Part shown: piece by piece, positions 1 through 48,678 of the stretch
Layout: each line of letters opens with the position of its first letter
How positions within the stretch are numbered: the stretch's first letter is position 1
From: Patiria miniata
Taxonomy: Eukaryota
Length of the DNA stretch: 64,000 nucleotides
Assembly: GCF_015706575.1 (NCBI RefSeq)
Contig: NW_024037060.1
Span: 2,728,515 to 2,792,514 of the forward strand
Reading direction: 5' to 3'
Position numbers and translations under genes: made by a program
Notes under the pieces: model-generated
Databases searched by the model: none
What the model saw: only the letters and a program-made list of their open reading frames with translations
What the model was told of the DNA's origin: nothing

Positions 1-138
1 TACGGCGTTGGATGCTCTGTGAGTCTGTGGTACGATCTGAGGCAATTTCTGACCACTTTAACCAATGTTTTTTGAGGAAAAGATGGTGGTGTATACTCAT
101 TGCCTGCCTTTATTGCGACGTCACATAAAAAAAGGGTT

Positions 139-2035: not shown

Positions 2036-5000
2036 AGGTCACTCATCGACAGGTTTGCATTTCTTTGGGATGAGACACGTGATGGCCACGACGAAGACAG
2101 CGAAGATGATGTAGCCAATGAAGATACCAGCCAGCTCACCCGAAGACCAGTACGAGAGGATCGGAGGCTCTATAAGAACGAAACAATGCCAAATGAGACG
2201 GGTCCGTGATTCTCCCAGATTCAGAGGTCCCCGGCCCATCTCATCAAATTTGGAAGAAAACTTTTCTTATTATACTGGACTGAAATGATGAAACTGCGTT
2301 CTCACTGCGCAAAATGCGACATTTGCTTTTGGCACACTTGTTTGTTTGAAGTTACAAATTAATTGCCCAAAGTACAGGGTGAGCAAAAAATAAAGGAAAG
2401 CCAGGCAGGACCATTTTTTTAATCAAGTTCTGCATGTAGCACTTTCAAAATCTAGGATATAAAAGCCCAATTCATAAGCTTTCGTTTAGTACAAAAATCA
2501 TTCAAATCACTTATGTACTTTTCAAATCACGGAATTTTAAAGCACCGTTTTAAAGTTCTGTCCACACACCACCAAAAGGTTAGCGTTCTTTCAGCAAAAC
2601 GAAAACAATTCACATGAATAGTATCGTTTTGCTGAAAGAACCTTGCCTTTTTTTGTGGGGTGTTTAGTACCCAGTACGATCTTTAATCCGAGATAAACTT
2701 TTTGATAATAACTCGGTTAGTTATCTTTGGAATAAATTCAAATAATAATATATTCCTTTAAATTAACATTCTAATAACACTCAACATGAAAACATTAGGC
2801 CAAAAAAGTCTCCGGTTTCTGGTATGCGCGCGCGTCGCCGTAGTCATGCGCGTCAGCAAAATGAAAAAGTTTTTTTTCAATGAAAGATGATGTCTCAAAA
2901 CCGCCAAACTCACTGGTTTAACTGGAATCCTGCTTCTGCACAATTTCAACGTGTTTTTAGAAGGGGTTATGATCGAGAATAAGCTTTATGTGGCCTCTCT
3001 GGACTCCCATATATTTGCACTAAGTTTAGTCGGCCACCATTTGCAGTCATCAGCCGACATTTGAAGCAAAAAAATAAATAAATAAACCAGGTTAAAAAAA
3101 AAAAAAGCCGCGTCGCCGCACCACTTTTTGGGCAAGCTCCATACAAACAAGAAACCGGAGTCTTTTTTTTTGGCCTTACTTGGTAAACAAATTTCATATC
3201 GAAGTCTTTTGCTGTGTCGCTTACCGCAAAGTTCAGAGCTTTCGTCCGTTCCGTGAATGCAGTCTGCGTTCGAATCACAAAGAGCCCGTTCGTCAATGCA
3301 GTAGAAAGGGCCGTAGATACTTTGGCAACGGACTCCCGATTCACAGTCTAAAAAAAACACACAGTTGATAAAACTTTAGAAACATTCTCCTGAAGAAGTT
3401 TCCTTTTGGCCTTTGCAACCCTCTGAAAAAAAGGCTTCCATTGTGCGCACTAATTAATCCGCGCCGTGCAAGGGCCGGATTATACATGTATATAGTCGGG
3501 CCGCAAATAATCCAAATGTTGTACAGAATAATTCAATAACTAAACATCGGTGGACTTTTTTTTTCGTTCCATGTCACATTTGAGAGTGATTAACTTTTCT
3601 ATTGCTAGGAGTATATAAGTAACTGAAAAGAAATCGTGGTGAAACTCGTAAGAGCACGAAGAATACATCTTTAAGTTATCATGGTGCATCTGAATTATTT
3701 TCTCCCTATAGGATAGGACCCGGATTTATTTATTTAAATGAGAGTGCGAGAACCGCCATGCTCAAAAATGCTAAGTGGGCCAACAATGTATGAAGTCGAC
3801 TTAGTACTGGTAAATCAAGTGTAAGAAAGAATTTTCCCTTTTGATCTGCAATGCTAGAAAAGCTAAAAGCAAGGCGTGGGTTTGAATATCCTCCAATATC
3901 GGGCATTTTTGTCATTTCTACTATAATGGATGTACGCAGTTTCAATCCAAACGAACAATAACACAGCCAACTCATTCTTTTACAGTTTAGCTGAAGTAAT
4001 TTCTGATTCATTTTCTCCCTAAATCTCCAGAACTTCTGACTTAACTTGTGAATTGACTTGTGAATTGAATGACTTGTGAGTTGACTTGTGACTGACTCTG
4101 GTTGAAAGTCTGGTACAAGTCTGGTTGAAAATAACAAGAATTGTGGACTATGCATCTATGCATAGAGCTGTATTATGCAGCTCTATGATATTAATATGCC
4201 AACTCCGACAAAGTCAATGACTCACTACAAAAAGATGCGAATTCATCCTCGCCGGCATAGCAGTCGACCACAGAGTCGCAAACCTTATGAGATGGCAGAC
4301 AGTTGTTACCAGGTGAATAGAAGCAGTGAAACGCACAGGGTTCTTCGGTGCCTTCAAAAGAAAAAAACACAGCATAAATTTAGGCCTTTTCCCCATTTCG
4401 TTTATAGCTCACTCCAGAAATATTCACGAAAAATGATGCTCTATATACTGTACATACTGTCACTCGACTAAATTGAACTGACAGTAACAGAAATTGTGGA
4501 CTATTTACGCCGATCGTGCCAACTCCGACAAAGTCAAAAACTTACCACATCGAGAATAGTCTTCATCCTTGCCATCAGTGCAGTCGACTACAAAGTCGCA
4601 AATCTTAGAAGATGGTAGACAGCTGTACTGGTTGCCATTGTTTAGTTGATAACAGTAAAAATTCGACGAACAACTATCTGTGGTAAGTAAAAAAAACACA
4701 CACACACCCACACACATATAAGTGTGAATTTGCCTGCAATCGGGGACCCCAATATTGTCCCTCCTTTGTTTGTACTTTTTAACTTTTTAGGAAGACCTCA
4801 AATATGTTTTGTACACCATCGCTCAATTGGGGACCTTCGGGAATTGGGACCTATTATTGTTCAACGTCCCCTACTGAATGCAGAAACAAACTCACATAAT
4901 ATGTGATTATTTTTTAGTTACTCATGAGGGCTTGCCACTTTCCTTCTTTTGTTCCCTTTGGTTTGTACCTCAAGCTCCCATAAGGTTTGTATACGAAACT

Positions 5001-8000
5001 CTTTCGAGGACTGAAATTGGGGACAATATTAGACTTAGTGTAAAATTCAAACAATCGAATAGTTCGAGGTTTCACTCGAGTCTGCACTGGATCGGTCTTG
5101 GTCCTCCCCTTCCCCCTCCCAAATTGGTTTTGATCTAAACTTAGAGTGATTTTCCACTTTGTTAATGAGAGTAAGTGAAGCCAAATTCGACAGAGGCCTG
5201 GTTCAAACTTACCGTCGCAAAGTGCGTCTTCCTCGTCGTCTCCGTCTCGGCAATCAGGATATCCATCACAAATTTCAGGAGTTCGAACGCAAAGGGGGAA
5301 GCCGGAAGCATCCCGGCAATGAATTCCATCCGATGGACAATCTATAAAATCGAAGTCGAGAATTACAGCGCTGCTACTATACATCAGCAGTGACAGCAAC
5401 ATCACTCCCCCCCCCCAAAAAAAACCCCCCACACACAGATAAATAAACACACGATTCCAAAGTTCATATTATAATATAGGTTTCCCGGCTATTTTAAAAC
5501 ATTTTCCACTCAAATTCACCAACTCTAACAATCAATTTTGTCCGAGAAAAAATTCTCATGCTTTTAACACAACCAATTTAGTCATTATCATTCAATTTCA
5601 AAATTTGATCACCCATTTTAGTCACCGGGTCGATAATATTCGTCATTACAGATCAAATCCGTCTAAGCTGTTGCCGAATGGCAGCATTCAGAGATCAAAT
5701 TCGTCTTATATAAATCAATTAGACGAATTTGATTTCTGAATAACACGATTCGGCGTAGACGAGACGAAATCGAATACACCGGGTCGAAAACGTGTGCTCA
5801 TTGTTTTAATTTGTTTGAACTAAATTTGAAATTGTCAGACAAAAGACGAAATTAAACATTGAAAGTGCACTAAATCGATGTTGCCGGACGAAATGAATAT
5901 AAGAATCGGTGAATTCGAACGAAAAATGTTTTCAAATAGCCGGTAAAACCTATACTCATTAGAATGAAAAGCCGATAGCATTTTTGGCAATGACGACAGA
6001 ATGATACTGAAATATAGATGTGGACATACATCAGTTCCGCACTTAAAGGTGAGGGGGGGGGGGGGCACGTGCTCCAGCGGATGTCCGTTCCCCCTGTGCC
6101 CCCTCCCTCATTTAAAATTGAACTAAAAGACATTGATGTCTTTGGCTTCAGTAACACCCCTTGAAAAATGTGTGTACATACCTCAAGGTACCCCTCCCCT
6201 ACTTCCAAATTTTCCGATTTTAACCCCGGTTAGCCACTGACTAAGATATGCGAGATATTTGTATGGAGGGCGCAAAAGACAGAGTTATACACATACATCT
6301 CTCTGGCAAGGTATTCAATAGGGGCCGGACAACTACAAAGAGAAATCAATCAAAAAGAGGGAGGGCCGTTAGGGACCCTTTTAAACTCTTCGCAAAACAC
6401 AACATCAACGAGAGGCAATATCAGCAAAACACACCATCAACAAGAGACAATACGCATCAGCAAAACACAACATCAACAAGAGACAATACGCATCATTGAA
6501 TTTAACCGTATCGGCCAACGGGGCAACAACAATTTGTTTGATTTCTTCTGCCGACCGACCTATACCTCAGGCAACCAAATATGAGAACCATATAAATAAA
6601 TAGGGACGCCCTTATGAAATACAAATACAAATTAATTTAACGATAAAAATGACAGTTCATGGTATCTTTGGAACTAGAAGCACTTACCACAACGGCTATC
6701 TGTTTCGTCTTGGTTATGCCAGCAGTCGGTAACTCCATTGCACAGCTCTTCCACTGGAATGCACAGCCTCGTGTTCTCGTGAGTAGGGCAGACAATTCCT
6801 GAGTCACAATTAGCTGCATGGCGAAAACACAAAAAAGCCCTAAACGGTACAAGAACTGGCAGGTCGACCTGTGCGAACCAACGAGCTCTTGCGAGATATG
6901 TGTATGGAGAGCTGTTTGTTGGGGGATCTGTTACATGGTACCCTCTGGAGACATGGGTACAATATGGAACAAAAGATTGTATACGGACGTCTCCACAGGG
7001 CAATTTCTATAGATGAATACGTCTCCACAAGGTACACGAAATAGATATATGGATTTTACCCCCAAACTAGGAATTTTTCAAGGTGGGTTGATCCGTCGCA
7101 AATTGAAGTATTTTATGTAAGGGATATATGTAAATCCAAATATCCATAAAGGCAAATATCCATACCTTCATCCGAATGCCTAACATCGAAAACTTGGTCC
7201 CGTGGTCAATTTGACCTCTCTTGGAAAATTACACATAACTCTGTCAAAAATTATCAGATTTGGACATTTAATGTCTCATTTTAAAGTGTAGGGCCTAAAG
7301 GCGTATCTTTCACACCATACCTATATTGTCTATTTTGGTTACACATTCTACGTCCGGCATTCCATTATATTTTGTTTGCATTTAGTAGGAAGAAAATGAA
7401 CTGTGAAAACTTACTACAGTTCTTCTCATCACTACCGTCCGGACAATCAGGAAAACCATCGCAGATGTCACTCAACAAATAGCAAACCGGGTTATCTGTG
7501 CACTTGATTAGACCAGAGTAATAAGGACACTCCCAATCTGGAAACAAAGAGAGTTAAACATGAATACCAGCGGTGTCGAAGGTGGTGATAGTGGAGATGA
7601 GTGGTGGTGAAACCTTGCAAGTTGTGAATGTGATTGTTTGAGTTGCAGGGTGACCGTACGGTCAGAGCCAAATTCTGCTAAACGCACATCAAAAATCTGT
7701 CAGATTTATCAAAAATCTGCCAAATTACCCTGAATTACTTAAAATACACTATAAACACTTAAAATCACATGCAGATTAGTATTATTGCCTTAATTAAGAT
7801 TCAAATTACATAATAAACAATCTAGTCACATAAAGATATTGTGAAATTATTGGTAAATTTCGGGCCACGTTGATCCGGCCACGACGAAGTCCGTTTCCCA
7901 GTGAACCTCAGCACCTAGACCAGCCAACCTGTCCCATTATGCAAGGGTTTGTTTGAAAGGATTGAAGCTTTTTAAAACAAATGTACACTTTTTCGTTAAA

Positions 8001-11000
8001 ATTTGCTGTTTTTCTGTCAAATAACCATTTATGCAGAATTCTGCCAGAAATCTGCCAAAAAACCCATTCTGTCAAATTTTCTGTCGAACTAGTTTTTTAA
8101 CAAAAATTCTGTCAAAGTTAGCCGAAAATCGGCTAAAACGGTCACCCTGTTGAGTTGTGTCAATGCGGAGAAAACGACAGACCCTACCTTCAGAAGTCGA
8201 CGTGATCACCATGATTACCCCATCGTCTGTGCCTTGAGAATCCGTTTTAAACTTGACCGTCAGGAAACGGCCATAAGTCTCAACTGTAAAATAAGAACTG
8301 CCATACTTTCCACATAACTCTAGTAATAAGTCATCGCCATTTGTCCCGCTTCCCTCATAGTACGTCAGGCAATCATAATCCTCCAGTGAAAAACGATGAA
8401 ATCTAACCAGCAACCTGTGGTTAATCTGGGTGTACAGCATCATAGTGCAGGTTTTGGAATTACTGTACTGACTGCCCCTGTTGGTATGAAGCCAAATGGT
8501 TTTATTGGGATGCACCAGTGTGTCGTTCGAACAGAAGTCCTCCATGAAGTAGTTCGCTGTGATTAAAGAGAACGGAACATTTACTCCAGACAATCGTTAC
8601 TGAAACAAGACTAGACAACCCCAGTAAAACTAGTCCCAGAGCGCACAGAATTCTATTCAATTGATTCAGAAAGATTTAAAAAAAATATTGTAGAATAATG
8701 GAAAGCGGCACGCGATAGAAATGGAAAATCAATATTTGCATTTCGCATGAGTTTGACTTATTCCCTACTCTTATATCTTGAAAGTGCATGAAACAAGCGT
8801 CAGTAAGTAAGATAGGTAACCAGTCTAATTCCCAATTGACATGTCAGTCAGTTTGAGACTGAAGTAAGTCTAAGTCACAAGTTGAAAAAAAGAATAAGAA
8901 AAAGAAAACGATGATGATAGATGAATGACACCAATTTTGTATGTAATACATCCCCTACCTTCTACTGCAAACGTTGTGAGCGAGTAGGTGAGCCGATCAT
9001 TATATCTGATTCCGTCTGAGGCGTCTACGCCGAAAAGAATGGCAGGTCCTGTGGTAAGGAACACGGTGTCGTCGTAGAAGCGAAGTCCGCACTTGCGCAA
9101 CATGGAGCTTGCCGAGGTGGTGTTGCCGTCAAACAGTGTGACACAGACTTCCTCGTCAATCCACAACGGAGTCGTTGATTTCGCAAGGAACAGCGTTGGT
9201 GTAGGCGAATTGTAGGTGAAGGCCAGAGAGCAGTTTTCGTCGGACTTTTCATACCAGGCTCCATATTGCAAACGGACTTTAACGCTGCTTCCGAGCGGGA
9301 CACTGGAGATGTCAATAGATGTACCGTCGTTATGGGCACAGGCACCGTTTTTGTACAAGAAGTACTCATCTGAAAGCAAGAGAGGGCAGACAGAATTTCC
9401 AATTTTAATGCTCACCTAAAGTTCATGATGTTCATCTAACATAATAATGCCAGGGTCAAGGATAGCTGATAGTAAATATCAAGCGATGGTAATTTCCCCA
9501 TGGGTAAAATGTAAATCATTAACAGCGTACGTGTAGGCCAACGCGTAGTACTGACAGATGGTTAATAAGTCCTATAGCAGATTTTAACTAACAAGTGGGC
9601 ATTGGTGTGAATTATAATTGCCTTGTGAATTGTCGGTATCGAGCAGCGATACACGTTATGAATCCCTATCAGAGGCAATTTCCACGTACAATGTACGCAG
9701 CCTATAATCGTTCTAAAATGTCAACATCCGTAACAGTGAAACACCGAGGCCCCACCCCAAAAAAAGATATATCGTTTGGTCATAATTAACTTGAATTTCA
9801 GAATAATCATGTCGTTGAATGTTTTCTAAGTCTGAAATGTACAGTACAGATAATATTCCATTTAAAGCAATTGATGATTTTCCGCCATAATTTATGACCA
9901 CTCTTTATATCATGATTGGTCTATGCTCTTTTTCCACAAAAGTCTCATTTCGTCGGTCAAACTTCAATTCTACAGCAAACTGATTCAAGTCGTCAAAGAC
10001 TTTTCTATCTATTGTGTTTCTATGATTACTGTAAAGGCTGTAGTGCTGGTTAAAGCAATGTGCATACTTATTTGCAAACATTCACAAATGCAACGAGCAA
10101 ATTATTACGAAAAAAGCCTATGATTGAAAGTAATAGTATCAAGCGTCCTGGGAAATCTTAGCGTCTGGTATAATGCAGTCCGCAGCATTTTGCATATTGT
10201 TTCGGGGGGAAAAACACAAACTTAGAGAAAAGTTAGAATTTTGGCCGAATGCAGATATTAAGGTTAAATCCAAATAGACCTATACTCTACAGGTTTTCCC
10301 GACTATACCAAACGCTTTTTTGGTAGTCCAATTCTAATATTCATATTCGTCCGAGAATTTCACATGCTTATATTAAAAGCAATTTAGTAATCAATTTCAA
10401 AGGAGTTTGGTCAACGTATCTAAGCACTTGGCCAAGAATATCCGTCAATACACATTGAATCCGTCTTAGCTATCGCCGAACGGCAGCATTCGGAGATCGA
10501 ATTCGTCTGATGTCATACAATGTAGAAGTTGTGTCAGGTAAATTGACGCGCACAATTTAGCACATTCGTTCGCATGATGTTATCAGACCAAGTAGGTGTT
10601 CTTTACTCAGAGAGCAGTTACCAAAAGACAAGTGTAAATATAACCAAGAACAACAAACCATCAATAACCTTTTAATTTTGAAACGAATAAAACAAGTGTT
10701 CAAATGAAAAAAAGACAAATGTCAAAACTACGACGACCCTTTTAATATATTTTCCCGTGTAACGTTTGTGCCCAAAGCTGGGTCTAACGTACTTTTCAGA
10801 AGATCAAATCAAGCGAAGCAAATAATAGATGTATATGAAGAAACAAGGAAATAAAAAGGGCAGAAAACTCTTCCCATCAGCGGCATGCCTCCGCTGAAGT
10901 TGCAGCAAAGTAAGACGAAATTGAACAAAATTATGATTAAATTGTGTGACATAATAAGATGAATTGTTTGCTTTCTGAATAACACTGCTCGGCGTATAGA

Positions 11001-11279
11001 CGAGACAAAATCGAATGCTGCTTGACGTACATGTGTGCTCATGGTTTCAATTTCCTTGAACTGAATATAAAATTGTCTCACAAAAGACGAAATTATACAT
11101 TGGAAGTGCACTATATCGATGTTGATTGACGAATTTCAATATTAGAATCAGTGAATTTGAATGATAAATAGCCTGGAAAACAAACGCTAAAACATACCTG
11201 TGGAAGGGCCATCGCCACCACCTTCTGCACTGGCAACCATCAAGACAACAAGATAGAATACGATTCTAATGTTCGCCAT
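2036..11279 (-). CDS. Gene A: multi-exon gene for a type-I transmembrane protein with a signal peptide, 2 CUB domains, 6 LDLa repeats, a TM helix and a short cytoplasmic tail. Exons on the minus strand: 11198..11279 (ATG, signal peptide MANIRIVFYLVVLMVASAEGG, donor GTATGT); 8959..9369 (CUB1); 8188..8556 (CUB2); 7415..7538 (LDLa); 6688..6813 (LDLa); 5212..5341 (LDLa); 4546..4677 (LDLa); 4226..4351 (LDLa); 3225..3347 (LDLa); 2036..2169 (TM + tail + stop).
   Basis: Six-frame ORFs give CUB-like sequences (…CGKYGSSYFTVETYGRFLTVKFKTD… and …CSLAFTYNSP…TGPAILFGVDASDGIRYNDRLTYSLTTFAVEG). Repeated LDLa signatures C..C…C…CDG..DC.DGSDE..C occur in exon-sized ORFs: [104 protein letters not shown]. The hydrophobic stretch LAGIFIGYIIFAVFVVAITCLI is followed by PKKCKPVDE and a stop. 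Each exon is flanked by a polypyrimidine tract plus AG acceptor and a GTAAGT/GTGAGT/GTAGGG donor, which I checked individually. The signal-peptide exon is hydrophobic and starts with ATG. Exon phases were not all verified. Confidence 0.8.
4040..4130. repeat. Minisatellite of about 4 imperfect copies of gacttgtgaattga, plus a gtctggttgaaa duplication.
   Basis: Read directly; located in a gene A intron. Confidence 0.8.
5455..5962. mobile_element. MITE-like non-autonomous element, family 1, copy 1, about 510 bp, with roughly 20-bp terminal inverted repeats (tataggtttcccggctatt … aatagccggtaaaacctata).
   Basis: TIRs seen directly. An internal palindrome (aattcgtct…agacgaattt) is present. A second copy occurs at 10262..11180. 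The element is AT-rich and has no ORF. Confidence 0.7.
7648..8152. mobile_element. MITE-like element family 2, about 505 bp, with TIR cagggtgaccgt… …acggtcaccctg. It is internally rich in the short repeats aaatctgccaaa and ttctgtcaaa. Located in the gene A intron immediately 5' of the CUB2 exon.
   Basis: TIRs read directly: 7648 cagggtgaccgtacggtcag and 8137 taaaacggtcaccctg. Internal direct repeats. Confidence 0.55.
10262..11180. mobile_element. MITE-like element family 1, copy 2. It has the same ends and internal segments as 5455..5962 but carries an internal insertion of about 450 bp (about 10510..10960). It lies in intron 1 of gene A, within 20 bp of the signal-peptide exon donor.
   Basis: Shared blocks: ccgtcttagctatcgccgaacggcagcattcggagatcgaattcgtct vs ccgtctaagctgttgccgaatggcagcattcagagatcaaattcgtct; ctgaataacac..cggcgtagacgagac.aaatcgaat; ttgaaattgtc.cacaaaagacgaaatta.acattg.aagtgcacta.atcgatgttg; terminal aaatagcc.ggaaaac. 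Confidence 0.65.
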
Positions 11280-14450: not shown

Positions 14451-17400
14451 ATCTTACTCTTCCTCAGGTTTGCATTTCTTTGGGATGAGACACGTGATGC
14501 CAATAATGATGACAGCGAAGACGGCGTATCCACTGAAGATACCAGCTAGCTGACCCGAAGACCAGTACGAGAGGAGCGGAGGTGCTGTAAGATCGATAAA
14601 GGAATAACGAGACAGATGCATCAAAGCAATAATTGTGGCCAAATTCAACTGGAACTACGTACCCTCTAAATGACTGCTCCGTTGTAATAAACACTAACGC
14701 TCACGCCATATCAACTTTCTGTTTTATTGGCTCATTAATTAGAAAGCAACCAAAAGCAAGGTTTAATAGTTAACATCATAACATAAGCTGTATACAAGTT
14801 GCAACGAAAAGAATCTCAGTTTGGGTGGACTGAGATCTGTCAAATAGCAATAAACAAAAGAATCTAAAAAAACCCAAATATAATATAATATAGTATAAAT
14901 AGCCACACAAAATTCCCCTCTCAATGGAACGAATATTTTTTGTTACCGCATAGTACGCTGTTCTCGTCCTCCTTGTTAAGGCATTCAGAGAACCCATCGC
15001 AGAGGGCGGTCTCGTAAACGCATTGAAAACCAAAGCCCGTATCACACTGAACATCAGAGGGGCAATTAGCTGAAAATTAGCGGATCAGACAGGAGGTAAG
15101 GCAAGCGGTGTCAACATGTGTACCGGTCTAAAATCCTTGTAGCGTATCAAACTAGCCCTTAAAAAACTTTGGAATTTAACTTGCAGCTTGTTATCAGATC
15201 TAGCTGTAAAATGTTGTAAAAAACATGTACATTCAACCGACTAGTATCAATATCTTCTTCCTGTTGTAAAAACAATGGGTATTTTTGACCCGACATTCTT
15301 CTGGGTCAAAATGAGGGGTTTTTGGTGTCCAAATGACACTTTCCAGGTTAAATGGCCCGGAAAAGGGACTTCAAGAAGTTTCACGAATCAGGTAAAATCT
15401 GATATGGCTCTTCCAGTGGGATCTGATTTGGGGGCTTTTGTCCGCCTTGCTCTGCAAGTCGTCAACGCTTTCAAGTGGAATATTGCTTTTAAAGAAAACA
15501 CGAGGGCACATTTGGCTATTCATGGTCAGGTATGGAACGTCTTTTAAAATTAGATACTTACTGCATAACCAGGAGGTTTCGTCCGCAGTATTCATGCAAT
15601 CACGCTTAGAATTGCAAATGGCAGAAGACGGCAAACACTCAAAGTCGCCCGTGAAATTGTAGCAATAAAACTTAGAGGGACAATCTGAGTTGAATAAAAA
15701 AGAAATGACTTCAACCCTTCGGTTTAATAGGCACAGCGATATTCATGACGAAAAAGAAAAATGCTCGAGTTCAAAGACTGCTTTCTGGTAATATTCTTAC
15801 AATAACAGACTAACCTGAAGTGGCATCCATCAATATTGGGACAAAATAAATATATAAGCGTAAATCCAGACATTAATTTGAATGATATATGATTTTAATC
15901 GCTACTCTCCAAATTCCAAAGAGTGACAATTCACTCCATTCGAGTGAAGATTCACTCCCACAGTCGGAAACTAGGGACTGGACGTTTTAGAGTGAAATTT
16001 CTTCAATCGTAAAGATCGAGTTTTCACTCGAGCTTCGACTGAAGTGGTTATTTTTCAGACTATTTCAATTGAAAAATTAATGAGAGTGATTTTCACTCTA
16101 AAACGTCTAGTCCCTAATTTCACTCTTGGGAATTTAGAGAGTACATCTCACTATACATTTGGGAAAGTAATGGACCATACAACTTAGGCTATATGGTAAC
16201 CGCCAAAGTAACCCCATAAAATAATAGAATTGATTTACCTTTGCTGCACAATGCAGTGTCTTCGTCTTCATCAAATTTGCAGTTTTGCCAGCCGTTGCAA
16301 ACATTATACTGTTCCGTGCACTGATATTGTCCCCATGTATTCAGGCAATGAAGGCCATCGCAGTCTAAAACAGACGACATATGAAACACAAGAACATCAG
16401 GTGTCACTGTGATTACCTTTAGCATTTTCATCGCATGGCCGATGAAATTTCCTTGCTTTTTGCTGTTATATTTGCATATGTGTATGGATCACCGTTATCT
16501 CCTGTCACCACTGTCGACATCGTTTTAATCAACATTATCCGCATGTATTGGAGTATGCAAACCTTTCTAAATCTTCCTTTCTTTTTTCACTCCTCCACGT
16601 TTGTTGGTAGAGTAGTTCGCACATGCTTTGTGCATTGGTAAACGTTTCCACAATCTATCCTGGAAATTGTATGCGATGACTCCTTACAATATCAAAAGTA
16701 GGGGGAACTTGGACTAACGTTGATTCCATTAATTTAGTTGTTGGTAGAGTAGAGTAGTTCGCACATACTATATTTTATATAATATGGCGTTTCTAAGCTA
16801 GAGGTGCTACATTGGTAATCTTCACAGAAGTAAAGTATGGAAGAAATCTTCACACAAGGGGATATTCTGGGGAAGATGTTCAGGGTATTGCAACCAAATA
16901 CAATGAGCTATGTTTTAGGTAAACTTGCCCGCAATCTTTCCTGGATATATTTTATGAGATCGCTCCTTACAAATACTAAAAGGAGCTCCTTGAAAACTTG
17001 CCCGGGTTAATTTACCCAAGCATGGGTGAAAACTGCAACTACCCAAAATTGGGTTGTCCTTTACCCAATTATTTGGGTTAGAATTTCTGGTAAATTCAAC
17101 CAAAACTTGTGGTCATACCAGACTAAATTTAATTTGGTCTTAACTTATGTTGAATTTACCAGAAATTCTAACCCAAATAATTGGGTAAAGGACAACCCAA
17201 TTTTGGGTAGTTGCAGTTTTCACCCTTGCTTGGGTAAAATTAACCCATACAGGCAATTTTTCAGCGGGGGGTTTGGACTTTTCAACGTTGATTCGATGAA
17301 TTCCGTTTCGGTATACTCACCGCAACGCGCATCGGTCTCATCTTCTCCATTTATGCAATCAGTCACCCCGTCACACATGGACAGCACAGGAACGCATGAG

Positions 17401-20225
17401 TCTGTGGTGCCGTCGTTCAAGACACATTTGACGCCAGAATGACAAACCAAAGCTGAAATAATAATAGTCAAGAAAACTATTGAGGGCACTGTGTCACCTA
17501 AACTCATGATAGGCCGAGTCTGAATTGGTTGGCTATGGCTTGTTTGGACTTACTGCAGTTTTTCTCGTCGCTGCCATCACGACAATCGACGATGCCGTCA
17601 CATTGCTGGGATTTCCGATAGCACGCCTTACCGTCGTTGCACTTGTAGTAATACAGGTAATCACAGACAACTGCCAAGAAGCAGAAAAAATGTAAAATGT
17701 TACCTTGGCTGTCACAGTTTTGTAGGTCTGAGGTTAGCAAGGTAGTTGCTCGAATGGGCCAGGCGGGAACAATATATAATGTAGCCATCTCGTGAGAATA
17801 AAAAAAAAAGACATGTTATTAAAAAGAACTTTGAAAAAGATCGTCTTAAAATACGTTTTTTTGAGATAAGACCACTGTGGGGCATATTCAATTGAGGGCG
17901 CTATTTTTGTTTCCGACAGTTTTAAGGTCATAAGGTGTATGGTTTTGAAGACTGCGTGACCCATCTCACACTCTTTTAGGAAAGTTTAATTAGGGAAGCA
18001 CAAAGACTTCTGGGTCTAACATGAGCTCGTGAAGTGTCGTCCCTGTCCGAAAGAGGGCTGCAAAGAAATAAACCCCTCACCATAGATTTGATAGGGCAGT
18101 GGTTACGTGCGATCGCGAATGAACGAAGTGACAGAATAAGTGAGATTTGATACCCTCTGATGTAGCATCAATGACCATCGCTGCTCCTAGTCCTTTGATC
18201 CGTCCATCCGTCTCAAACCTTATCGTAAGGAGACGTCCCATATTTTGAAACTGGAAATACTCATTGCGGTCGTTTTTACCGCATACGCCGTCGTTGTATG
18301 AACTGCCATCAGCCCAGCTGGAGTTATAGAAAGTTAGGCAGTCCGAACCGGTCACAAAGGCTGTCGATTGAACTCGGGCGTAGAACATATAGTCCGGGTC
18401 GGTGCGAAGGGTCACGGTGCAGTCCATCGGTTTGCCGTTGAGGTCGTCCCGGTTGGTGTGAAGCCAGATGGCCGTATCCGGACGAACCACTGTGTCTAAT
18501 GTACAGTTGTCAGACATGAAGAAGTTAGCTGTGGTGTTTGGAATAAAAGAAAACATCAAAAATCATGATGCGAGAATAAATTTGGATCCATTTTTAAGGA
18601 AGTTAATACTGAGGTGCCGAGTATACTATACACTCTAAAAACAACTTAGTCAAAATATTGACTGGTTTTCCTAGTTATTGAAAATTGACTAGCAATTTAG
18701 TAAAACATGCAAAGTTTCATATACTGTGACTAGAAAAAGTAGTTGGGTTCGACTCGAAATTCAGTTATTGGCATAACTATTTTTCCCAAGTCAATAATAC
18801 TGACTGGAAAAATCTAGTCAGATTGACTGATTTTCAGTTGCACCCAGCTGACCCTGAATGGCTAGTCATATTTAACTGGTTTCTAGTCAAATCTGACTAA
18901 TGCTTTTTTAGAGTGTAGAGTTTTGTGAGGTTTTACTTCATGTCAATGTAAACATGTCGTCACCGTTTCTGACGAAGTGACGAGTTCGTCTAAAGCTGGT
19001 ACGTATAATTTAATGCAACAAAAAAACCCAGATTTTTAATGTTGTCGGGAATCGGCCATCAAGATTTCAATCAAAAACATCGTAATTGTTAAAGTTTTTT
19101 TTTTTTTAACTGTACACGAATAGCAAAGTAGATGCTAAGAGATTTAAAAGATATATATACAGTACCTTCCACCTCAATCGGCGTAATGTCAAACGTGAAT
19201 CCTCGATAACGCAAGTCACCAGAAATGACGGTTGTAAAACGTATCAGAATTGCCGGCCCAGTCGTCAGGAAGCTAGCTTTACCGTAGAAATAGCCACATC
19301 GGTGAAGGTTTAGACTAGCCTCGCTAGTCGCGCCGTCGTATAGCGTCAGACAATCATTATTATTCAACCGGACGAAGTTCCCGCCCCCTCCGACATGGAA
19401 AAGCGCCGGGTTGCGATAGGTGAGTACCAGTGAGCAGTTGACGCCCCGGTCGTAATCTTCGTCAGACTGGGACTTGACAACCACGGAGGAGCCGTAAGAC
19501 ACGATGTCAGTCAGGTCAATGGGATCGTCCTGGCTATATACGCAGGCGCCTTTGTCGTACATGAAATACGTAACTGTAGGAGAGAAAGGGTTGTTACCAC
19601 ATGAACATTTGTCTGGTGCTTCAATTTTGACATGAGTGTTCAAAAAGAAGTTCATTATTCTCGACATGCACTATAGATATACATAACAAGTCGTGGATTT
19701 GGCGGGGATTGGAGTTGTATGAAGTCTAACAAACCAACCCCCACGAAAAAATATACAACATAATGACTAATGTCTTAAAATACTATGAATATCTCAATGA
19801 AAGCCCTGCTTGAAAATCCAGTCACTGTATTTATTTTTGGAAGATTTGTTTTCTCGATAATCAGGCCATGACAATTACTATATACTACCAGGTACTCACA
19901 TTTATAAATACAAATTAAATAAGGCGTCCTCGAAAAAAGAAAATGGTAAAACGTTTTTTTCCTGATTGTGATCAAATATCCTAAAATCAGAAAAAAATAA
20001 GTTTAAGTAGTTTTCAATAATGTTGCTCCCCCACCAGTGCCCGCTTTTCCAAACATTTGTTTGGGCACGAAAATGTTTTGACTTACAATTGTGCTACTCC
20101 TATTCCTGCGTAAAAGTCCGGATACTAATGCCACCCTCAAATAAAAGAACCTCACCTTTAGAACACTCTGACAATCCAGTCGTCATCAGCAAGACAAGAC
20201 TGCAAAAGATTCTGATACCCGTCAT
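14451..20225 (-). CDS. Gene B: tandem paralogue of gene A with a signal peptide, 2 CUB domains, 5 LDLa repeats, a TM helix and a tail. Exons on the minus strand: 20156..20225 ([24 protein letters not shown], donor GTGAGG); 19166..19573 (CUB1); 18154..18528 (CUB2); ~17545..17665 (LDLa); ~17310..17440 (LDLa); ~16250..16380 (LDLa); 15562..15684 (LDLa); 14948..15069 (LDLa); 14451..14583 (TM + tail + stop).
   Basis: The architecture and exon order match gene A. CUB1 aligns with gene A ([34 protein letters not shown] vs SDEYFLYKNGACAHNDGTSIDISSVPLGSSVKV). LDLa motifs are [72 protein letters not shown] and [18 protein letters not shown]. The TM exon [40 protein letters not shown] is about 85% identical to gene A's at the nucleotide level. 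Acceptors (ttacag, cacag, ctcag, tttcag) and donors (GTAAGT, GTATCA, GTACTG, GTAACA) were checked by eye. Confidence 0.8.
15905..16140. mobile_element. MITE-like element family 3, about 236 bp, with 13-bp TIR ctctccaaattcc…gggaatttagagag and an internal long inverted repeat (tagggactagacgttttagagtgaaa … ttttcactctaaaacgtctagtccctaa). Located in a gene B intron.
   Basis: An inverted-orientation copy lies at 21464..21694. Degenerate relatives are at 25640..25830 and 5025..5110 (shared cgagttttcactcgag core). Confidence 0.7.
17001..17243. repeat. Foldback element: a near-perfect palindrome with roughly 100-bp arms (gggttaatttacccaagc…ggtaaattcaac / gttgaatttacc…gcttgggtaaaattaaccc) around a loop of about 40 bp.
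   Basis: The two arms are reverse complements, checked base by base with 1-2 mismatches. It lies about 45 bp 3' of a gene B LDLa exon and gives the spurious plus-strand ORF 17026..17442. Confidence 0.85.
18628..18920. mobile_element. MITE family 4, about 293 bp, TIR tacactctaaaaa…tttttagagtgta. Located in the gene B intron between the CUB exons.
   Basis: A near-identical copy (>95%) is at 55001..55290 in the same orientation, which suggests recent transposition. Confidence 0.8.
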
Positions 20226-22177: not shown

Positions 22178-25100
22178 GCTTCACTTGCTCAGAAGGCCAT
22201 GGGTAAAGGCGTCCCAGTCGACAAGTGCTCCAAACTGCCCTTCCACGCTCTCTACCGACCCTTTAATGTACGCGCTCGCCCGCTCGATGGCTTGTGAGAC
22301 CTTCCCAGCGACAGACGTGGGCAAGTCTAGCTGGGCAGACACGTTATGTAGGTGAAGGCGGGCGAGTAGAGTCGCCACCAGTCGGACGGCCAGATCAAAG
22401 ATGTCACCGACGTCTACCGTAGCTCCTTCTCGCGACATGACTACACAATAAACAACGAATTTATATTATAATTATGATGATATAAATATCATAAAAATAA
22501 ATGATTAAGCATGGTTAATTTTTAAGGGATTTTTAAAATTAAAAACGAGCATGCCTTTTGTATCCCTTATACTTATAGAAACGTATTGATGTGTCATAAT
22601 GGGGTATCTCATATTTCAAAAAATAATAAAAAAATATAATATTAACGTTTATTAATAATAACGGTGTGGACTTCTTTTGGTATAATATAAAATGATCTGA
22701 ACAGTGTTGGTCTATATTGATGATTATGTATTAATATATACATACGTTTCACCAACTCCCTCAAAAAAGGCCCAATAATCATTATCAAAATAACTTGGAC
22801 GACTATCGAAATTGAAGACAAGGATTCACTTGGGCCGTCTTACCTGATTTGAGTTTTTCTTTGAGACGTTGTTTGCACTCCAAGATGTTGATACCTAGAA
22901 TCTCCTCCAGTTCAGACTGAAACTCCCAATGTCCGTCCTGAAAAGCGGAAAACCCAATAAGCCCTTAGATTTCAGCCAACTAAGCTGTTTAGATTATAAT
23001 TAGCCATTTTTGACAGAAAGAAAGCACACATTCATAATGGAGCCTGACAGGTATTATAACACATACCACGTTTTGTAACTCAATAAGACGCAGCGTGTCT
23101 TTGGTGACAGTTTCTGGATCCTTTACAAGAGAAGCCATGGCGTCAGTCATCAGCTCATCATCGGAGCTCCCAACAGACACTTGAGGTGGACGTCGGGGAG
23201 GGGCGGTGCCTCCTAGGGTTGGTGGGGTAGGAGGTGGGGCAAGGCTTACTCCAGATGGTAGGGGAGGGGGAGGGGCGGCGCCTCCTGGTGGGGGCGGGGG
23301 AGGGGGAGGGGCGGCGCCTCCTGGCGGGGGAGGGGGAGGAGCGGAGCTGGCCATAGTTTCTAAAAGTGGAATGGGGGAAGCGCGCATACGTGCTGAGAAA
23401 GCTTCCTCATCAAATGATGGGGGATGGGGAGATAATTCCGGAGCGTCTCGACTAAGACTTTTCGGTTGCTTGCTCTTTTTCTTTTTAAATAAGCCCCCCA
23501 CTGCATCCTTTGCTGTCTTCATTATGCCTGGGCCGCTGGACTTCGGTCGTCTTTCAGGAGCGTAAGATGCTCCAGGCAATTCTTTTTCCTTTCTTGCAGC
23601 TTTGGCCCTTTTCTGAATGACAGGATTTTCTGAACCCTGAAGTACCTTGACTGGTTCAAAGGCCCTCTCTTCATAGCGTTGTGGCTCTGGCATGGTGAGT
23701 TCAAGCACTGGTTCCGGCATAACGACCTCCCTTTCGATCATCCTATCCGGTTCCAAGACAACTTCTCTTTCTTGTACAGCAAGTTCTCTAATATCCTCAC
23801 TTAGTTCGTGACGTTGTGGCATGGCTACAGTGTCAACAAACTGGGGAGAAAGACTCCTCTGCGGCTCTGGCATGAGAAGATCTCTTTCGATCATCAAATC
23901 CGGCTCAAAGACAACTTCTTCTCTAGCACTGGTGTAAAGCATCGGCCGTGGGACATATATTTCCTGTTCCATCACATCTTCCTCCAACACTTTCGCAGTC
24001 ATGATCTCCTGCGGCTCCTGTGGTTCCGCAACCCAGCTGCGGGATACAGTTACAAGGGTGTCTGTCTTAAGTGGTTCCATTTTGGGTCTTCCCATCGGTT
24101 CCTGTCCATAGCTGCATGTGTCTCGGTCTTCCACCCATGTCACTTCATCCCTTGTCAACTCATGAGAGACTGTCATCCATCTATCCATCTCCCCTGTTGA
24201 CTCTACATTGTCTTCCTGACTGACTACCACTAACTCCTCTCCTAACTCATCAATGTCTTCAAGATATACTTCCACTGACTCGTCTAATTCAGCCGGGATA
24301 TCGCGTAGGCTGGGTTTGTGCTCAGGCTGTACCGGCTGCGCATTGATCCTTGCCATCTCCATTTGACATCTGATTAGTACAAAGAAATGCAGTTTATATA
24401 ATTAGACATTTATTTATGTATTTATTTATTCCATTTCTTTGCCCAGGGTATGCCCAAACTGTTAGAAACTGGTTTCCATTAGGGCCCTGCATACTTACCA
24501 AATTATTAAAAAATGTTAAGTAAAGTTGACCTCGTAAGGAAAATACATTGGTGAAACATACGACGAACATTAATATTTTTATACAAGTACATGTATCTCA
24601 AAAATATTAAAGAAAAGCTATATACATTGTACATATTTTAAACATGCAACTATTTGGCATAAATTACTGATCACGCGGGACGGGCGAAAACCCCACAAAA
24701 ACCTTTAGGGGGAAAAAAGGAGAAATTCTTAATCCAGCTCCAAATTAATGCCATGGCAACCAAGTATATAGTCCGTAGATCAACGCATTTTGAACTAAAT
24801 TTCACTCACTTATGGTGTGAAATAAACTCAGATATGAAAATATAACATACTTAACCAACGAAGAACACCCTTCCCAAACAAGCTGGTAAAGGGTCGACGT
24901 TAGGTTCAAATAGGCACTGGTAAGGAAACGCTTAGTATAGATCTTTATCATGCTGCCACCATTTCAGTCTTGTTCCCTGTATCCAATAAAAATACTTTTT
25001 TTTGCGTACAAAAAGGAACCAGACTATTTTTACCTTCCAGCCTCGCTTTGGTTACGTTGATTTGAATGGGAAAAATCAAAACGGACGCAACATGATAATG

Positions 25101-45398: not shown

Positions 45399-46445
45399 AT
45401 GACGAATTGCAATGCTTCATCTTGCCTGATTTTCGGCACTGCTAACTCTTCTATCGACGAATCTCCTCCATTCCTGGATGATGAGCGTCATATAATAGTC
45501 ATTGTTGCCCAGACGTCCACGATGGTTATCATTCTTCTCCTCAGCGTGGTCGGTAACAGCCTGGTCCTGACTGCGATCTACCGGGACATCAAGCTACGCA
45601 ACACCGCCTCAGTCTACGTGGCCAACTTGGCCACTGCCGACCTCCTCAACGGGTTACTAACCATGCCTCTCATCGTAGCCTGCAGTGTCTTGGGGGAATG
45701 GCCCTTCGGTCCGGCACTCTGTTCCCTCAGCGGGGCTCTGACGACCCTCTTCTGCAGTGTGAGTGTCTTTACCCTGGGAACGATAGCCGTGGACCGCTAC
45801 ATCGCCATCGTGCATCCGCTACGCTACAGCACGCTCATGACGCGCCGTAAAATCGTGGCGTCCATCTGCGTTACGTGGCTCCAAGCTGTCATCCTATCCG
45901 CCTTGCCCATGCTGGGATGGTCCAGCTACCTGTACATCGACAAGGAGTATCTCTGCACGGCCGATTGGGGAGGGGTGCTCTCCTACACCCTGACGGCCTT
46001 CGCTATAGATTTGGGATTTCCTCTGACCACCATGTTCTTCTGCTACTACCACATTCTCAAATCGGCGCGCAAGCAGTCGCGGCAAGTGGCCGCGCTTCGA
46101 GTAGGCCTGAACCACGACGCACAGAACCGTAGCTCGCCTCAGAGAGGCACCAGCCAACAGCCTTCGAAACGGGCGAAGTCAGACATGAAAGCCGCTATGA
46201 CACTTCTCGCCGTCATAGGAACGTTCCTGCTCTGTTGGCTGCCACATGTTGTGACGATGGTCTGTCTCGGTAGACCGTACAATTGTAACATCCCCGACGC
46301 ATTGTTCGTCATCTCGACATGGCTAGCCATTGGTAACTCGGCCTGCAACCCCGTGATTTATGGCATACTGAACAGACAGTTCAGGCAGGCATTTCGTGAA
46401 ATCCTATGTGGTTGGAAGGCTAGCAGAAGAATGTTCTTTCGGTGA
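45399..46445 (+). CDS. Intronless class-A (rhodopsin-like) G-protein-coupled receptor, 348 aa, orphan. It has a short ICL3 and an N-glycosylation sequon at the N-terminus (NAS, NSS).
   Basis: Single uninterrupted ORF with seven hydrophobic segments. TM2 has LATADLL, the end of TM3 has the DRY motif (AVDRYIAIVHPLRY), TM6 has CWLP (FLLCWLPHVV), and TM7 has NPxxY (NPVIYGILNRQFRQAFREILC) followed by a helix-8-like basic stretch. No Lys in TM7, so it is not an opsin. No Asp at the expected amine-binding position in TM3, so it is probably not a biogenic-amine receptor. Confidence 0.85.
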   Translation: MTNCNASSCLIFGTANSSIDESPPFLDDERHIIVIVAQTSTMVIILLLSVVGNSLVLTAIYRDIKLRNTASVYVANLATADLLNGLLTMPLIVACSVLGEWPFGPALCSLSGALTTLFCSVSVFTLGTIAVDRYIAIVHPLRYSTLMTRRKIVASICVTWLQAVILSALPMLGWSSYLYIDKEYLCTADWGGVLSYTLTAFAIDLGFPLTTMFFCYYHILKSARKQSRQVAALRVGLNHDAQNRSSPQRGTSQQPSKRAKSDMKAAMTLLAVIGTFLLCWLPHVVTMVCLGRPYNCNIPDALFVISTWLAIGNSACNPVIYGILNRQFRQAFREILCGWKASRRMFFR

Positions 46446-47457
46446 AAAAAATGTCTTCAAACAGATGTCCAGATGTCCGGTAAAAAAAATTGTTCATGCT
46501 CACCTTATTCTCAATGTTACAAAAAATATGGAATATAATATCTATAACGAAAATCCTTGCATCGAACTATATGATCAGTCTTTTTCATTCAGAAAAATAG
46601 TAAAGGTAGATGATGAAATAATTAACTTATTAAAATGGACGCATTGTACTGCCGCCAAAACAAACAATACAAACTTAAAAAGCTAATAATGGCGATATAT
46701 GACGATCTAAATTGTACCCTAATTCTAATGTTCGTTTGGGTGTGTGTGTCAGCAAGTACACACGATCAAAAATCGGTGTCAATATGAAAGATGACATATC
46801 GTGTCCATTTTCAAAAGAAATATATCGTTTCAATGAAAGGTGAGCAGTTACATTTGCCTCAGTTACGACGCATAATATGTTGAATTCGGGAAACGAATTG
46901 GGTCAGTATTCTCGATGGCTTTGACTTGCGAGCATGGCAACACGTTTCGGGGTCCCACTTATTAAATTTGTCGGTTGGTGAGGACCTTTGATTATAGTCG
47001 TATCCCAAGTCAAACGATGTCCGTAATTTAATTCTTGGGAACGGAGTCATGCAGACAACCAATCGGACAGAAAACACAGACCGGGGTGGGTGTCTGATTA
47101 AGCGGGCTTTGGTAACTGCATGCTCATTTCGTAGTTGACACCCTTACAGCTCCTCCATGTAAGCCGAGGAGTTACCGAGCTTTACACGGGATAGGCCTAT
47201 CGGTGAATGCTGGATGGACTACCTAGCTCAACCTTGGACACAACACCGTTCAAAAGCTAAGATATTGTGTTAAAACAAGGTTGGATTTTATAACAGTATG
47301 TAAATTTCTTCGGGTTGTCATCAGTGGTTTTCCGTTACTGTATTGACCAGCCGTATCGACTAGGAAGGAGTGCACTATCTGGCTTGTCTAAGATAAGGCG
47401 TTGGGACATCGTCTTCAAGTTTTGAAAGTTGACAGTACCTGTGTGATCCGTACCACA

Positions 47458-48678
47458 ATGTCGCAGCTTGGCTCCTCTAACATCACTCTCCTTGTACCAG
47501 GCGGGACGGACACCGGCATAGCTGCCGCGATTGTCGCCTACTCCACCTTCATCCTGGTCCTCGGCGTGCCAGGGAACAGCCTCATCCTCCGCGTTTACTG
47601 GAGCAAGCGACACAAATCCAGCACTCATATTCTCATCATGGCACTCGCCGCGACTGACCTGCTTGTCTGCTTGCTTCGTCCGTACGAGATCACGCGGTTC
47701 ACCCTGGCTCTTGCCGGGGTTAGCGTACCGGAGGGACTTGACGATCGCTGGAACTGCTTCGAGAACATGTGCGTTGGAACCTCGGGGTTCATAACGGCCG
47801 TGATCGCAGTGGATCGCTACGACTGCGTGTGCCGTCCGCACAGACGCCTTCTAACCAAAGGCCGGATTAAAGTAGCCCTGCTAGCGGCCGTCGCTTCTGC
47901 AGTTGCCGCAAATGTTCCGCTTTGCGTTCAAGTGGTAATGGGGCCCGAGGCACCGGCCTCCTTGTATATAATCGTGACCGCTTTCCAAATGGGTGGTTTC
48001 GTTCCTGCGCTTGCCTTGATATTCGTTTGCTACGCAAAGGTACTCCTGAGAATACGTAAGCATGTCCGAGTCGGTACGAGGTCTCTAGGACGTGCGTTAG
48101 GCATGCGACATCAAACTGACGCGGCGAGATCTACGACAATTGCGACGGTGTCAGCACACGTGGGATCGCGGCACTGCAACAACCACACGTCATGTAGCGA
48201 CTTGGGGTCAGTTTGCAACAATAGCCTGAAAACTCCAGATGACTTTCTGAAGAGCATCGTCTCCCAATGGTCCTCCTCTTCAAAACTCAGTACGGAGAAT
48301 AAAAATCGGTACCCAGACTTAGGAAATTCTCCCCATTCTTCGACCCAGACAACGACAAATGACCGCAGCGCACGCAGCGCGACGTCGTCCACACGGCCAC
48401 CTAGGGTGCCAACCTCCGAACGCAGGCAAGCGTCTTCAATGGCGTTTCAACGCAAAACCACCACAATGCTCTTCGTTGTAACGCTAGTGTTTGTTATATT
48501 GTGGATTCCGTATTGGATCGCTCTAGTGTTTGATATCGTGGGTGCCGACAGGCCGTTCGTTCTTAACGCGTTCGTGTTCGCCCTGTATCTGAATAGCGCC
48601 ATTAATCCCGTCATCTACGGTCTGGCAAATAGACGGTTCCGGAAAGACTGCAAAGCTATCCTCTGTAGAATGAGATAA
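47458..48678 (+). CDS. Intronless class-A GPCR, about 406 aa from the ATG at 47458 (the ORF is open from 47401). It is a paralogue of the upstream GPCR with a long (~150 aa) Ser/Thr/Arg-rich third intracellular loop.
   Basis: TM2 has LAATDLL, TM3 has AVDRYDCVCRPHRR (DRY), TM6 has ILWIPYW, and TM7 has NPVIYGLANRRFRKDCKAILC. The C-terminal motif is nearly identical to the upstream receptor's NPVIYGILNRQFRQAFREILC. The N-terminal NIT sequon and hydrophobic TM1 follow MSQLGSSNITLL. Both are in the same orientation and about 1 kb apart, so they are tandem duplicates. Confidence 0.8.
   Translation: MSQLGSSNITLLVPGGTDTGIAAAIVAYSTFILVLGVPGNSLILRVYWSKRHKSSTHILIMALAATDLLVCLLRPYEITRFTLALAGVSVPEGLDDRWNCFENMCVGTSGFITAVIAVDRYDCVCRPHRRLLTKGRIKVALLAAVASAVAANVPLCVQVVMGPEAPASLYIIVTAFQMGGFVPALALIFVCYAKVLLRIRKHVRVGTRSLGRALGMRHQTDAARSTTIATVSAHVGSRHCNNHTSCSDLGSVCNNSLKTPDDFLKSIVSQWSSSSKLSTENKNRYPDLGNSPHSSTQTTTNDRSARSATSSTRPPRVPTSERRQASSMAFQRKTTTMLFVVTLVFVILWIPYWIALVFDIVGADRPFVLNAFVFALYLNSAINPVIYGLANRRFRKDCKAILCRMR

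Follow-up and report, generated by a model that had tools for sequence, protein, structure and literature searches.

Probable short, patchy gene conversion in the transmembrane exon of two tandem CUB/LDLa genes of the sea star Patiria miniata

Two head-to-tail paralogs with CUB-like and LDLa modules

The DNA analyzed here, referred to below as the window, is a 64,000-nucleotide (nt) stretch of the Patiria miniata genome (contig NW_024037060.1, positions 2,728,515 to 2,792,514; coordinates below are those of the window). It contains two paralogous genes, A and B, arranged head to tail and both on the minus strand, in which the last coding exon, specifying a transmembrane (TM) helix, is far more similar in DNA than any other part. 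Is this exon held in place by constraint, or has it been copied from one gene to the other? The model of gene A (2039-11279, 10 coding exons) reproduces XP_038058552.1 (P0001) at 100%, and that of gene B (14454-20225, nine coding exons) matches XP_038058090.1 (P0039, 534 residues) exactly, including the predicted first exon at 20225-20156. All internal exons of both genes are of phase 1-1 and have canonical AG/GT boundaries, and the translated TM exons are identical to the C-termini of P0001 and P0039, respectively. The two TM exons are in direct orientation with 12.4 kb between them. The coding exons are as follows.

Gene A, minus strand
11279-11198, minus strand: exon 1
9369-8959, minus strand: CUB-like exon
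8556-8188, minus strand: CUB exon
7537-7415, 6813-6688, 5341-5213, 4677-4546, 4351-4226 and 3347-3225, minus strand: LDLa exons
2169-2039, minus strand: TM exon, the last coding exon (acceptor ...ttatag|AG, phase 1; junction residue E; stop TGA)

Gene B, minus strand
20225-20156, minus strand: exon 1
19573-19166 and 18528-18154, minus strand: CUB-like exons
17670-17554, 17452-17321, 16364-16239, 15684-15562 and 15069-14947, minus strand: LDLa exons
14584-14454, minus strand: TM exon, the last coding exon (acceptor …cttacag|CA; junction residue A; stop TAA)

Both genes thus run from a signal peptide through two CUB-like exons and a series of LDLa modules, one per exon (six in A, five in B), to a last coding exon for the juxtamembrane stretch, a single TM helix and a short KKCKP tail of 11 residues. 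Pfam recognizes Ldl_recept_a in both (77.2 bits in A and 59.2 bits in B; cut-off 24.1). CUB scores 28.8 bits in A (cut-off 21.4) and falls below threshold in B; only the second CUB-like exon of gene A passes the cut-off. The CUB-like exons of B align to those of A at 39-40%, and the CUB label for gene B, as for the first 'CUB' of both genes, is one that we infer. The signal exons and the TM helix can be read straight from the sequence, and A and B are predicted to encode type-I membrane proteins that carry CUB-like and LDLa modules.

The NCBI names of these genes ('LRP2-like' and, for gene B, 'ST14 homolog' or 'suppressor of tumorigenicity 14 homolog') are automatic and are not functional assignments. 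A membrane serine protease of the ST14/matriptase or corin type was considered for gene B and rejected: Pfam finds Ldl_recept_a alone and no trypsin-like protease domain, and the protein stops 11 residues past the TM helix.

Gene A shows a tandem exon duplication of its own, involving LDLa exons L4 and L5 (4197-4306 vs 4517-4626, 78% DNA identity), the match taking in some 29 nt of the downstream intron. Neither gene B nor the Acanthaster planci ortholog Ap1 (see below), each with five LDLa exons, has this duplication.

Divergence of the transmembrane exon within and between species

A blastn self-comparison of the window matched 2041-2181 with 14456-14596 at 85.1% identity over 141 nt (E = 3e-39). 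Between their splice-site limits and stop codons the TM exons of A (2039-2169) and B (14454-14584) differ at 20 of 131 nt, that is, they are 85% identical; after codon alignment the identities are 87% for nucleotides and 74% for amino acids. The seven other exon pairs show 49-55% codon-aligned nucleotide and 38-55% amino-acid identity. A preliminary description of this DNA, made without database searches, had the TM exons aligning 'almost base for base' and every other homologous pair extensively drifted. Its second statement holds. The first is right about a strong local match, and the strings quoted in its support do occur in both copies, but it overstates a match with 20 differences. The exon coordinates that it gave are correct to 1-3 nt, and the motif that it singled out, SYWSSG.LAGIF.GY, is present in both genes.

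Divergence between A and B was estimated exon by exon by the Nei-Gojobori method, as proportions of synonymous and nonsynonymous differences (pS, pN) and the corresponding corrected distances (dS, dN). In the TM exon pS is 0.13, pN 0.14, dS 0.15 and dN 0.15; in the other seven exon pairs pS is 0.65-1.02 (saturated) and pN 0.34-0.42. The preliminary description had named a similar dS in all exons as the outcome that would speak against conversion; what is found is a low dS in the TM exon and nowhere else. Codon usage tells the same story: where A and B have the same residue, the codon is identical in 28 of 30 cases in the TM exon and in 77 of 190 (41%) in the rest of the gene (Fisher p = 3.5e-8). 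Two peptides in other exons that are identical in A and B serve as internal controls. In DGSDEKNC six of the eight codons differ, and in FLTTGPAIL seven of nine. Because equally conserved peptides elsewhere differ at most of their codons, the DNA identity of the TM exon cannot be explained by protein-level selection alone.

The orthologous region of Acanthaster planci (L001, DF978686.1), which contains the gene Ap1 encoding P0003, was used as an outgroup. Against Ap1, the TM exon of A has a dS of 0.85 and a dN of 0.07, and that of B a dS of 0.91 and a dN of 0.19. The proportion of same-residue codons that are identical does not set the exon apart from the rest of the gene, either for A (23/35 vs 122/215, p = 0.36) or for B (18/29 vs 94/184, p = 0.32). 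Roughly every second synonymous site in this exon distinguishes Ap1 from A, and likewise from B (pS 0.51-0.53), much as in the rest of the gene. The TM peptides of A and Ap1 are 86% identical and those of A and B 74%, yet synonymous change is far greater between A and Ap1. Between species, then, this is an ordinary coding exon: the protein is strongly constrained and the synonymous sites are drifting freely. The preliminary description had also suggested looking at the orthologous locus in related species, and the Acanthaster values, high against both Patiria copies, support conversion.

Site patterns give a second view of the same comparison. Variable sites were sorted into those at which A and B agree against Ap1, those at which A and Ap1 agree against B, and those at which B and Ap1 agree against A. 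In the TM exon these classes stand at 17:12:2 for all sites and 13:3:1 for third positions. In the rest of the gene they stand at 175:263:196 and 62:112:84, and A is nearer to Ap1 than to B. The third-position patterns of exon and remainder differ (chi-square p = 1.4e-5), and within the exon, over all positions, the excess of sites uniting A and B over sites uniting B and Ap1 (17:2) has a binomial p of 7e-4. Outside the TM exon identical codons are fewer between A and B (77/190) than between A and Ap1 (122/215, 57%; p = 0.0014). Protein Kimura distances put B at 1.0-1.2 from A, from Ap1 and from a third Patiria paralog, C, and A at 0.85 from Ap1. Paralog C is XP_038058195.1, whose gene lies on the same 8.3-Mb scaffold. 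The duplication that gave rise to A and B is as old as the Patiria/Acanthaster split or older. A family tree rooted with P0044 was also tried; its topology was unstable and affected by long branches, and pairwise distances and synonymous-site counts were used in its place.

The Acanthaster region holds a second copy, Ap2 (L001 26675-31080, DF978686.1), which is a young, truncated tandem copy of Ap1 consisting of the signal exon and four LDLa exons; CUB exons are not detectable in it, and its TM exon carries frameshifts. The NCBI isoform X1 (P0038, 651 residues, 'sortilin-related receptor-like') corresponds to Ap1 read through into Ap2 with the Ap2 TM exon out of frame (…SAPSGTGRLVDWMASLLVTSSLLSSSLSLRA), and this isoform is probably an annotation artifact or the product of a decaying copy. 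A Kelch/BTB gene adjoins the Acanthaster pair and has no counterpart in the Patiria window.

Gene conversion and other explanations

How far does the similarity of A and B extend, and is it even? It runs about 12 nt into the intron on the acceptor side and ends at the stop codon. The 400-nt flanks beyond these points score no better between A and B than shuffled sequences do; by comparison, the flanks of the young Acanthaster duplicates Ap1 and Ap2 still align strongly. Inside the exon the differences are unevenly spread, as the following segments show (exon positions are counted from the acceptor; all on the minus strand).

A 2119..2181, B 14534..14596, minus strand: 5' tract, putatively converted; exon nt 1-51 plus at most 12 nt of acceptor-side intron (the blastn match reaches 2181/14596); differences within exon nt 1-51: A-B 5, A-Ap1 11, B-Ap1 14
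A 2085..2118, B 14500-14533, minus strand: TM core, apparently unconverted; exon nt 52-85; differences: A-B 11, A-Ap1 6, B-Ap1 11
A 2050..2084, B 14465..14499, minus strand: 3' tract, putatively converted; exon nt 86-120, a 35-nt identical run encoding 11 residues; differences: A-B 0, A-Ap1 5, B-Ap1 5
Exon nt 121-131, minus strand: tail; differences: A-B 4, A-Ap1 1, B-Ap1 4

With 20 differences placed at random in 131 nt, an identical run as long as 35 nt would be unusual (P = 0.023), and the contrast between segments has a post hoc Fisher p of 0.006. The TM core and the tail appear to retain the orthologue signal that unites A with Ap1, as in the rest of the gene. Most of the replacement differences fall in this unconverted core and tail, which accounts for dN being about equal to dS over the exon as a whole.

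Across asteroids, purifying selection acts strongly on the TM peptide. The pattern of sites further shows nonreciprocal copying between A and B after the Patiria/Acanthaster split, and we infer that the mechanism was interlocus gene conversion because a young history limited to one exon of old paralogs is the signature of this process. Short, patchy interlocus conversion superimposed on protein-level constraint is, in our judgment, very probably the correct explanation of the TM exon, as the preliminary description had proposed. The event would have taken place during repair of a DNA break, in the course of which at most about 140 bp (the exon and some 12 nt of intron) may have been overwritten. 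Copying would have reset the synonymous divergence of the exon to about 0.15 while all other exons stayed saturated; exon nt 1-51 and 86-120 would have been homogenized, and the TM core (52-85) and last 11 nt would have kept the old difference between A and B. The patchiness could reflect a single heteroduplex with discontinuous mismatch repair or two separate short events, and the candidate directions are A to B, B to A, or copying from a third donor such as paralog C. Protein-level constraint presumably left the TM exon as the sole place where A and B still resemble each other enough to pair, and conversion could for this reason go on there long after the rest of the genes had become unalignable.

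The alternative that had been offered alongside conversion, and the one that most needs weighing, is a constraint on the exon at the nucleotide level (an overlapping reading frame, a signal for exonic splicing or for regulation, a structured RNA or the target of a small RNA) that fixes its synonymous sites. Such a constraint would fit the way in which the similarity starts and stops almost exactly at the exon limits, as well as the 35-nt perfect run, which includes a CACGTG palindrome. The antisense frames of the two exons match too, although DNA identity produces such a match automatically. Against this, the synonymous sites have drifted as freely between the Patiria copies and Ap1 as they have in the rest of the gene, and therefore an asteroid-wide constraint of any of these kinds can largely be set aside. 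Nor is there a sign of an RNA element: Rfam has no match in the window, the exon RNAs do not exceed shuffled sequences in stability (folding z-scores +0.99, +0.34 and +0.19), and the copies do not share a fold. We consider this explanation, and with it the dual-coding or regulatory role that had been proposed, quite unlikely. Purifying selection on the protein alone is less credible again. It has in its favor that no other part of the family is as well conserved as the TM and juxtamembrane peptide, that dN between A and Ap1 is low and that the module recurs in other asteroid proteins, but selection of this sort leaves synonymous sites unfixed; it accounts neither for the excess of identical codons over the level elsewhere in the gene, nor for the control peptides, nor for the A-Ap1 pair, in which a better conserved peptide goes with far more synonymous change.

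Since the genes are in tandem and in direct orientation, unequal exchange would be favored, and a segmental duplication or unequal crossover that recently replaced the whole 3' end of one gene has to be considered as well. A replacement with a dS of about 0.15 predicts intron and 3' flank that are about 85% identical, whereas the flanks score like shuffled sequence, and the TM core and tail keep their old divergence within the exon itself; this makes the idea very unlikely. Convergence of the Patiria copies on the same codons, whether from a codon bias peculiar to the species or from a locally low mutation rate (a cold spot), would be in keeping with the GC content at third codon positions (GC3), which is higher in this exon than elsewhere in the gene. 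A bias, however, should have acted on other exons, in which identical codons are rarer between A and B than between A and its Acanthaster ortholog, and a cold spot should also have reduced dS between species, of which there is no sign; we give this account little credence. An assembly artifact (a collapsed or chimeric repeat) can practically be dismissed, given the 20 differences between the copies, their unique and unalignable flanks, and the independent annotation of both gene models by NCBI as full-length proteins.

Several points nevertheless count against the conversion hypothesis. The outgroup is a single species, and among the Patiria paralogs the DNA compared is that of A and B, which leaves formal room for a nucleotide-level constraint specific to Patiria; there is no positive evidence for such a constraint. 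With 42 codons and about 30 synonymous sites, the exon is so short that its dS has a wide error, and the borders of the mosaic segments were set after the data had been seen. The near equality of dN and dS between A and B calls for an extra assumption, either an unconverted core or relaxed or adaptive change in the TM core of B. The tract ends nearly coincide with the exon ends, which a constraint model also predicts. Finally, the raised GC3 of the exon in A (0.69 vs 0.52 in the rest) is equally present in Ap1 (0.67 vs 0.54), and consequently does not discriminate as a signature of GC-biased conversion; in gene B the values are 0.60 and 0.58.

Interlocus gene conversion is a known kind of event, very probably seen here in a new gene family, and no new class of mechanism is involved. 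Human estimates for non-allelic conversion put the mean tract at 250 bp, with a confidence interval of 63-1000 (bioRxiv 10.1101/135152), and a tract of at most about 141 bp between linked donor and acceptor lies within the published range. As in interlocus conversion generally (PMC3924818; bioRxiv 10.1101/135152), the copying at this locus would be nonreciprocal, between linked duplicates, and leave a mosaic of divergence; tracts in that literature are tens to hundreds of bp long and depend on local sequence identity. The duplicates concerned are, however, mostly young and still similar overall, whereas A and B are saturated elsewhere, and their TM exon is an isolated pairing island. The closest parallel is with the protocadherin clusters of fugu and zebrafish (PMC1852091; Noonan et al. 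2004 cited there), regional and lineage-specific conversion in the fugu clusters having been diagnosed by the same dS logic. There, too, the genes are tandem paralogs for type-I membrane proteins, only the C-terminal part is homogenized and the N-terminal ectodomain is divergent, the event is lineage-specific, and the diagnosis comes from nucleotide or synonymous identity beyond what protein constraint gives. The protocadherin tracts differ in being hundreds of bp to kb long and more than 99% identical, in involving many paralogs and in having raised GC3 (PMC1852091); A and B are a single pair from an unrelated CUB/LDLa family so far known from asteroids alone, with an older, patchy tract of at most about 140 bp, 85% identity and, in A, a GC3 raised about as much as in Ap1.

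If conversion is indeed the cause, the locus is a small, clean example of how it can persist in one short exon of otherwise saturated paralogs, and of how per-exon dS together with one outgroup can separate conversion from constraint. In practical terms, the TM exon should be left out of trees and of duplication dating for the A/B family.

The transmembrane module and other features of the window

Conservation within the family is highest in the TM peptide, in which A, B, C and Ap1 agree at 26 of 43 columns. An exhaustive HMMER profile search gave the module consensus P.I..YW.GGQ.AG..IG..IF...KKCK and recovered it in P0040-P0044, small proteins of Patiria, Asterias rubens and A. amurensis with one CUB and/or one to six LDLa modules, in which a glycine zipper is followed by a C-terminal ending of the HKKCKK type. 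The search found no such module outside sea stars among 1.84 billion representatives, and a degenerate DNA pattern for ITC[LM]IPKKC[KR]P had 0 matches in metagenome contigs. The zipper is of the form GxxxGxxxG; its glycines (G11, G15 and G19) do not vary among A, B, C and Ap1, it recurs in P0040-P0044 as GQLAGLFIG, GQMAGIVIG and similar strings, and it is invariant in all nine asteroid sequences that have the module. The analysis delineates a TM/tail module (a glycine zipper, then a KKCK-type motif), so far seen in asteroids alone and carried by small CUB/LDLa proteins. The preliminary description had raised the possibility that the juxtamembrane segment is a dimerization motif. This is plausible, and the glycine zipper lends some substance to it. 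A further reading, which we regard as unlikely, is that the conversion was not neutral: A, B and possibly C would assemble through their zipper helices, and selection would have kept recurrent short conversions at the helix ends and in the juxtamembrane segments because these hold the contact surfaces matched. The TM helix would in that case be an interaction module evolving in concert, within a receptor family peculiar to asteroids whose ectodomains are free to diversify.

Vertebrate NETO1/2 and LRP3/LRP12 resemble A and B in architecture only, each combining CUB domains and LDLa modules with a signal peptide and one TM helix. The best vertebrate matches (LRP3, E of about 4e-7 over 38-40% of the query) reflect generic LDLa/CUB similarity, and A and B differ from the vertebrate proteins in their tail of about 11 residues and in a TM module found in asteroids alone.

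A third LDLa-rich gene lies on the minus strand at 51498-63885. It has many LDLa repeats (about 57068-63885) and trypsin-like serine-protease exons at 54502-54314, 53506-53108 and 51659-51498, lacks a TM exon of the A/B type and, by tblastn, resembles proteases of the corin/enteropeptidase type. An intron of this gene shares a 289-nt repeat, 97% identical, with the intron between the CUB-like exons of gene B (54998-55284 and 18629-18917, respectively); this is most likely a young interspersed element.

Other repeats are found within and around A and B. The 80% match between 5717-5927 and 10953-11169 was considered as a conserved exon pair and rejected, both segments being intronic in gene A; the match is due to an interspersed repeat and does not reflect homologous coding sequence. 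Further non-coding repeats pair 15906-16141 with 21694-21463, and two are self-inverted (16991-17263 and 2564-2663). Some of the A/B repeats are palindromic intron segments resembling miniature inverted-repeat transposable elements, one of them about 400 nt upstream of the TM exon of gene A.

Directly upstream of gene B, an open reading frame (ORF) of 457 residues (22989-24362, minus strand) has long proline runs (PPPPPPGGAAPPPPPPPPGG…). Two long intronless ORFs on the plus strand (45399-46445 and 47401-48678) have features suggestive of seven-TM, rhodopsin-type G-protein-coupled receptors (DRY, NPxxY); they are about 34% identical over 96 residues and lie in a GC-richer stretch (47% vs about 40% GC).

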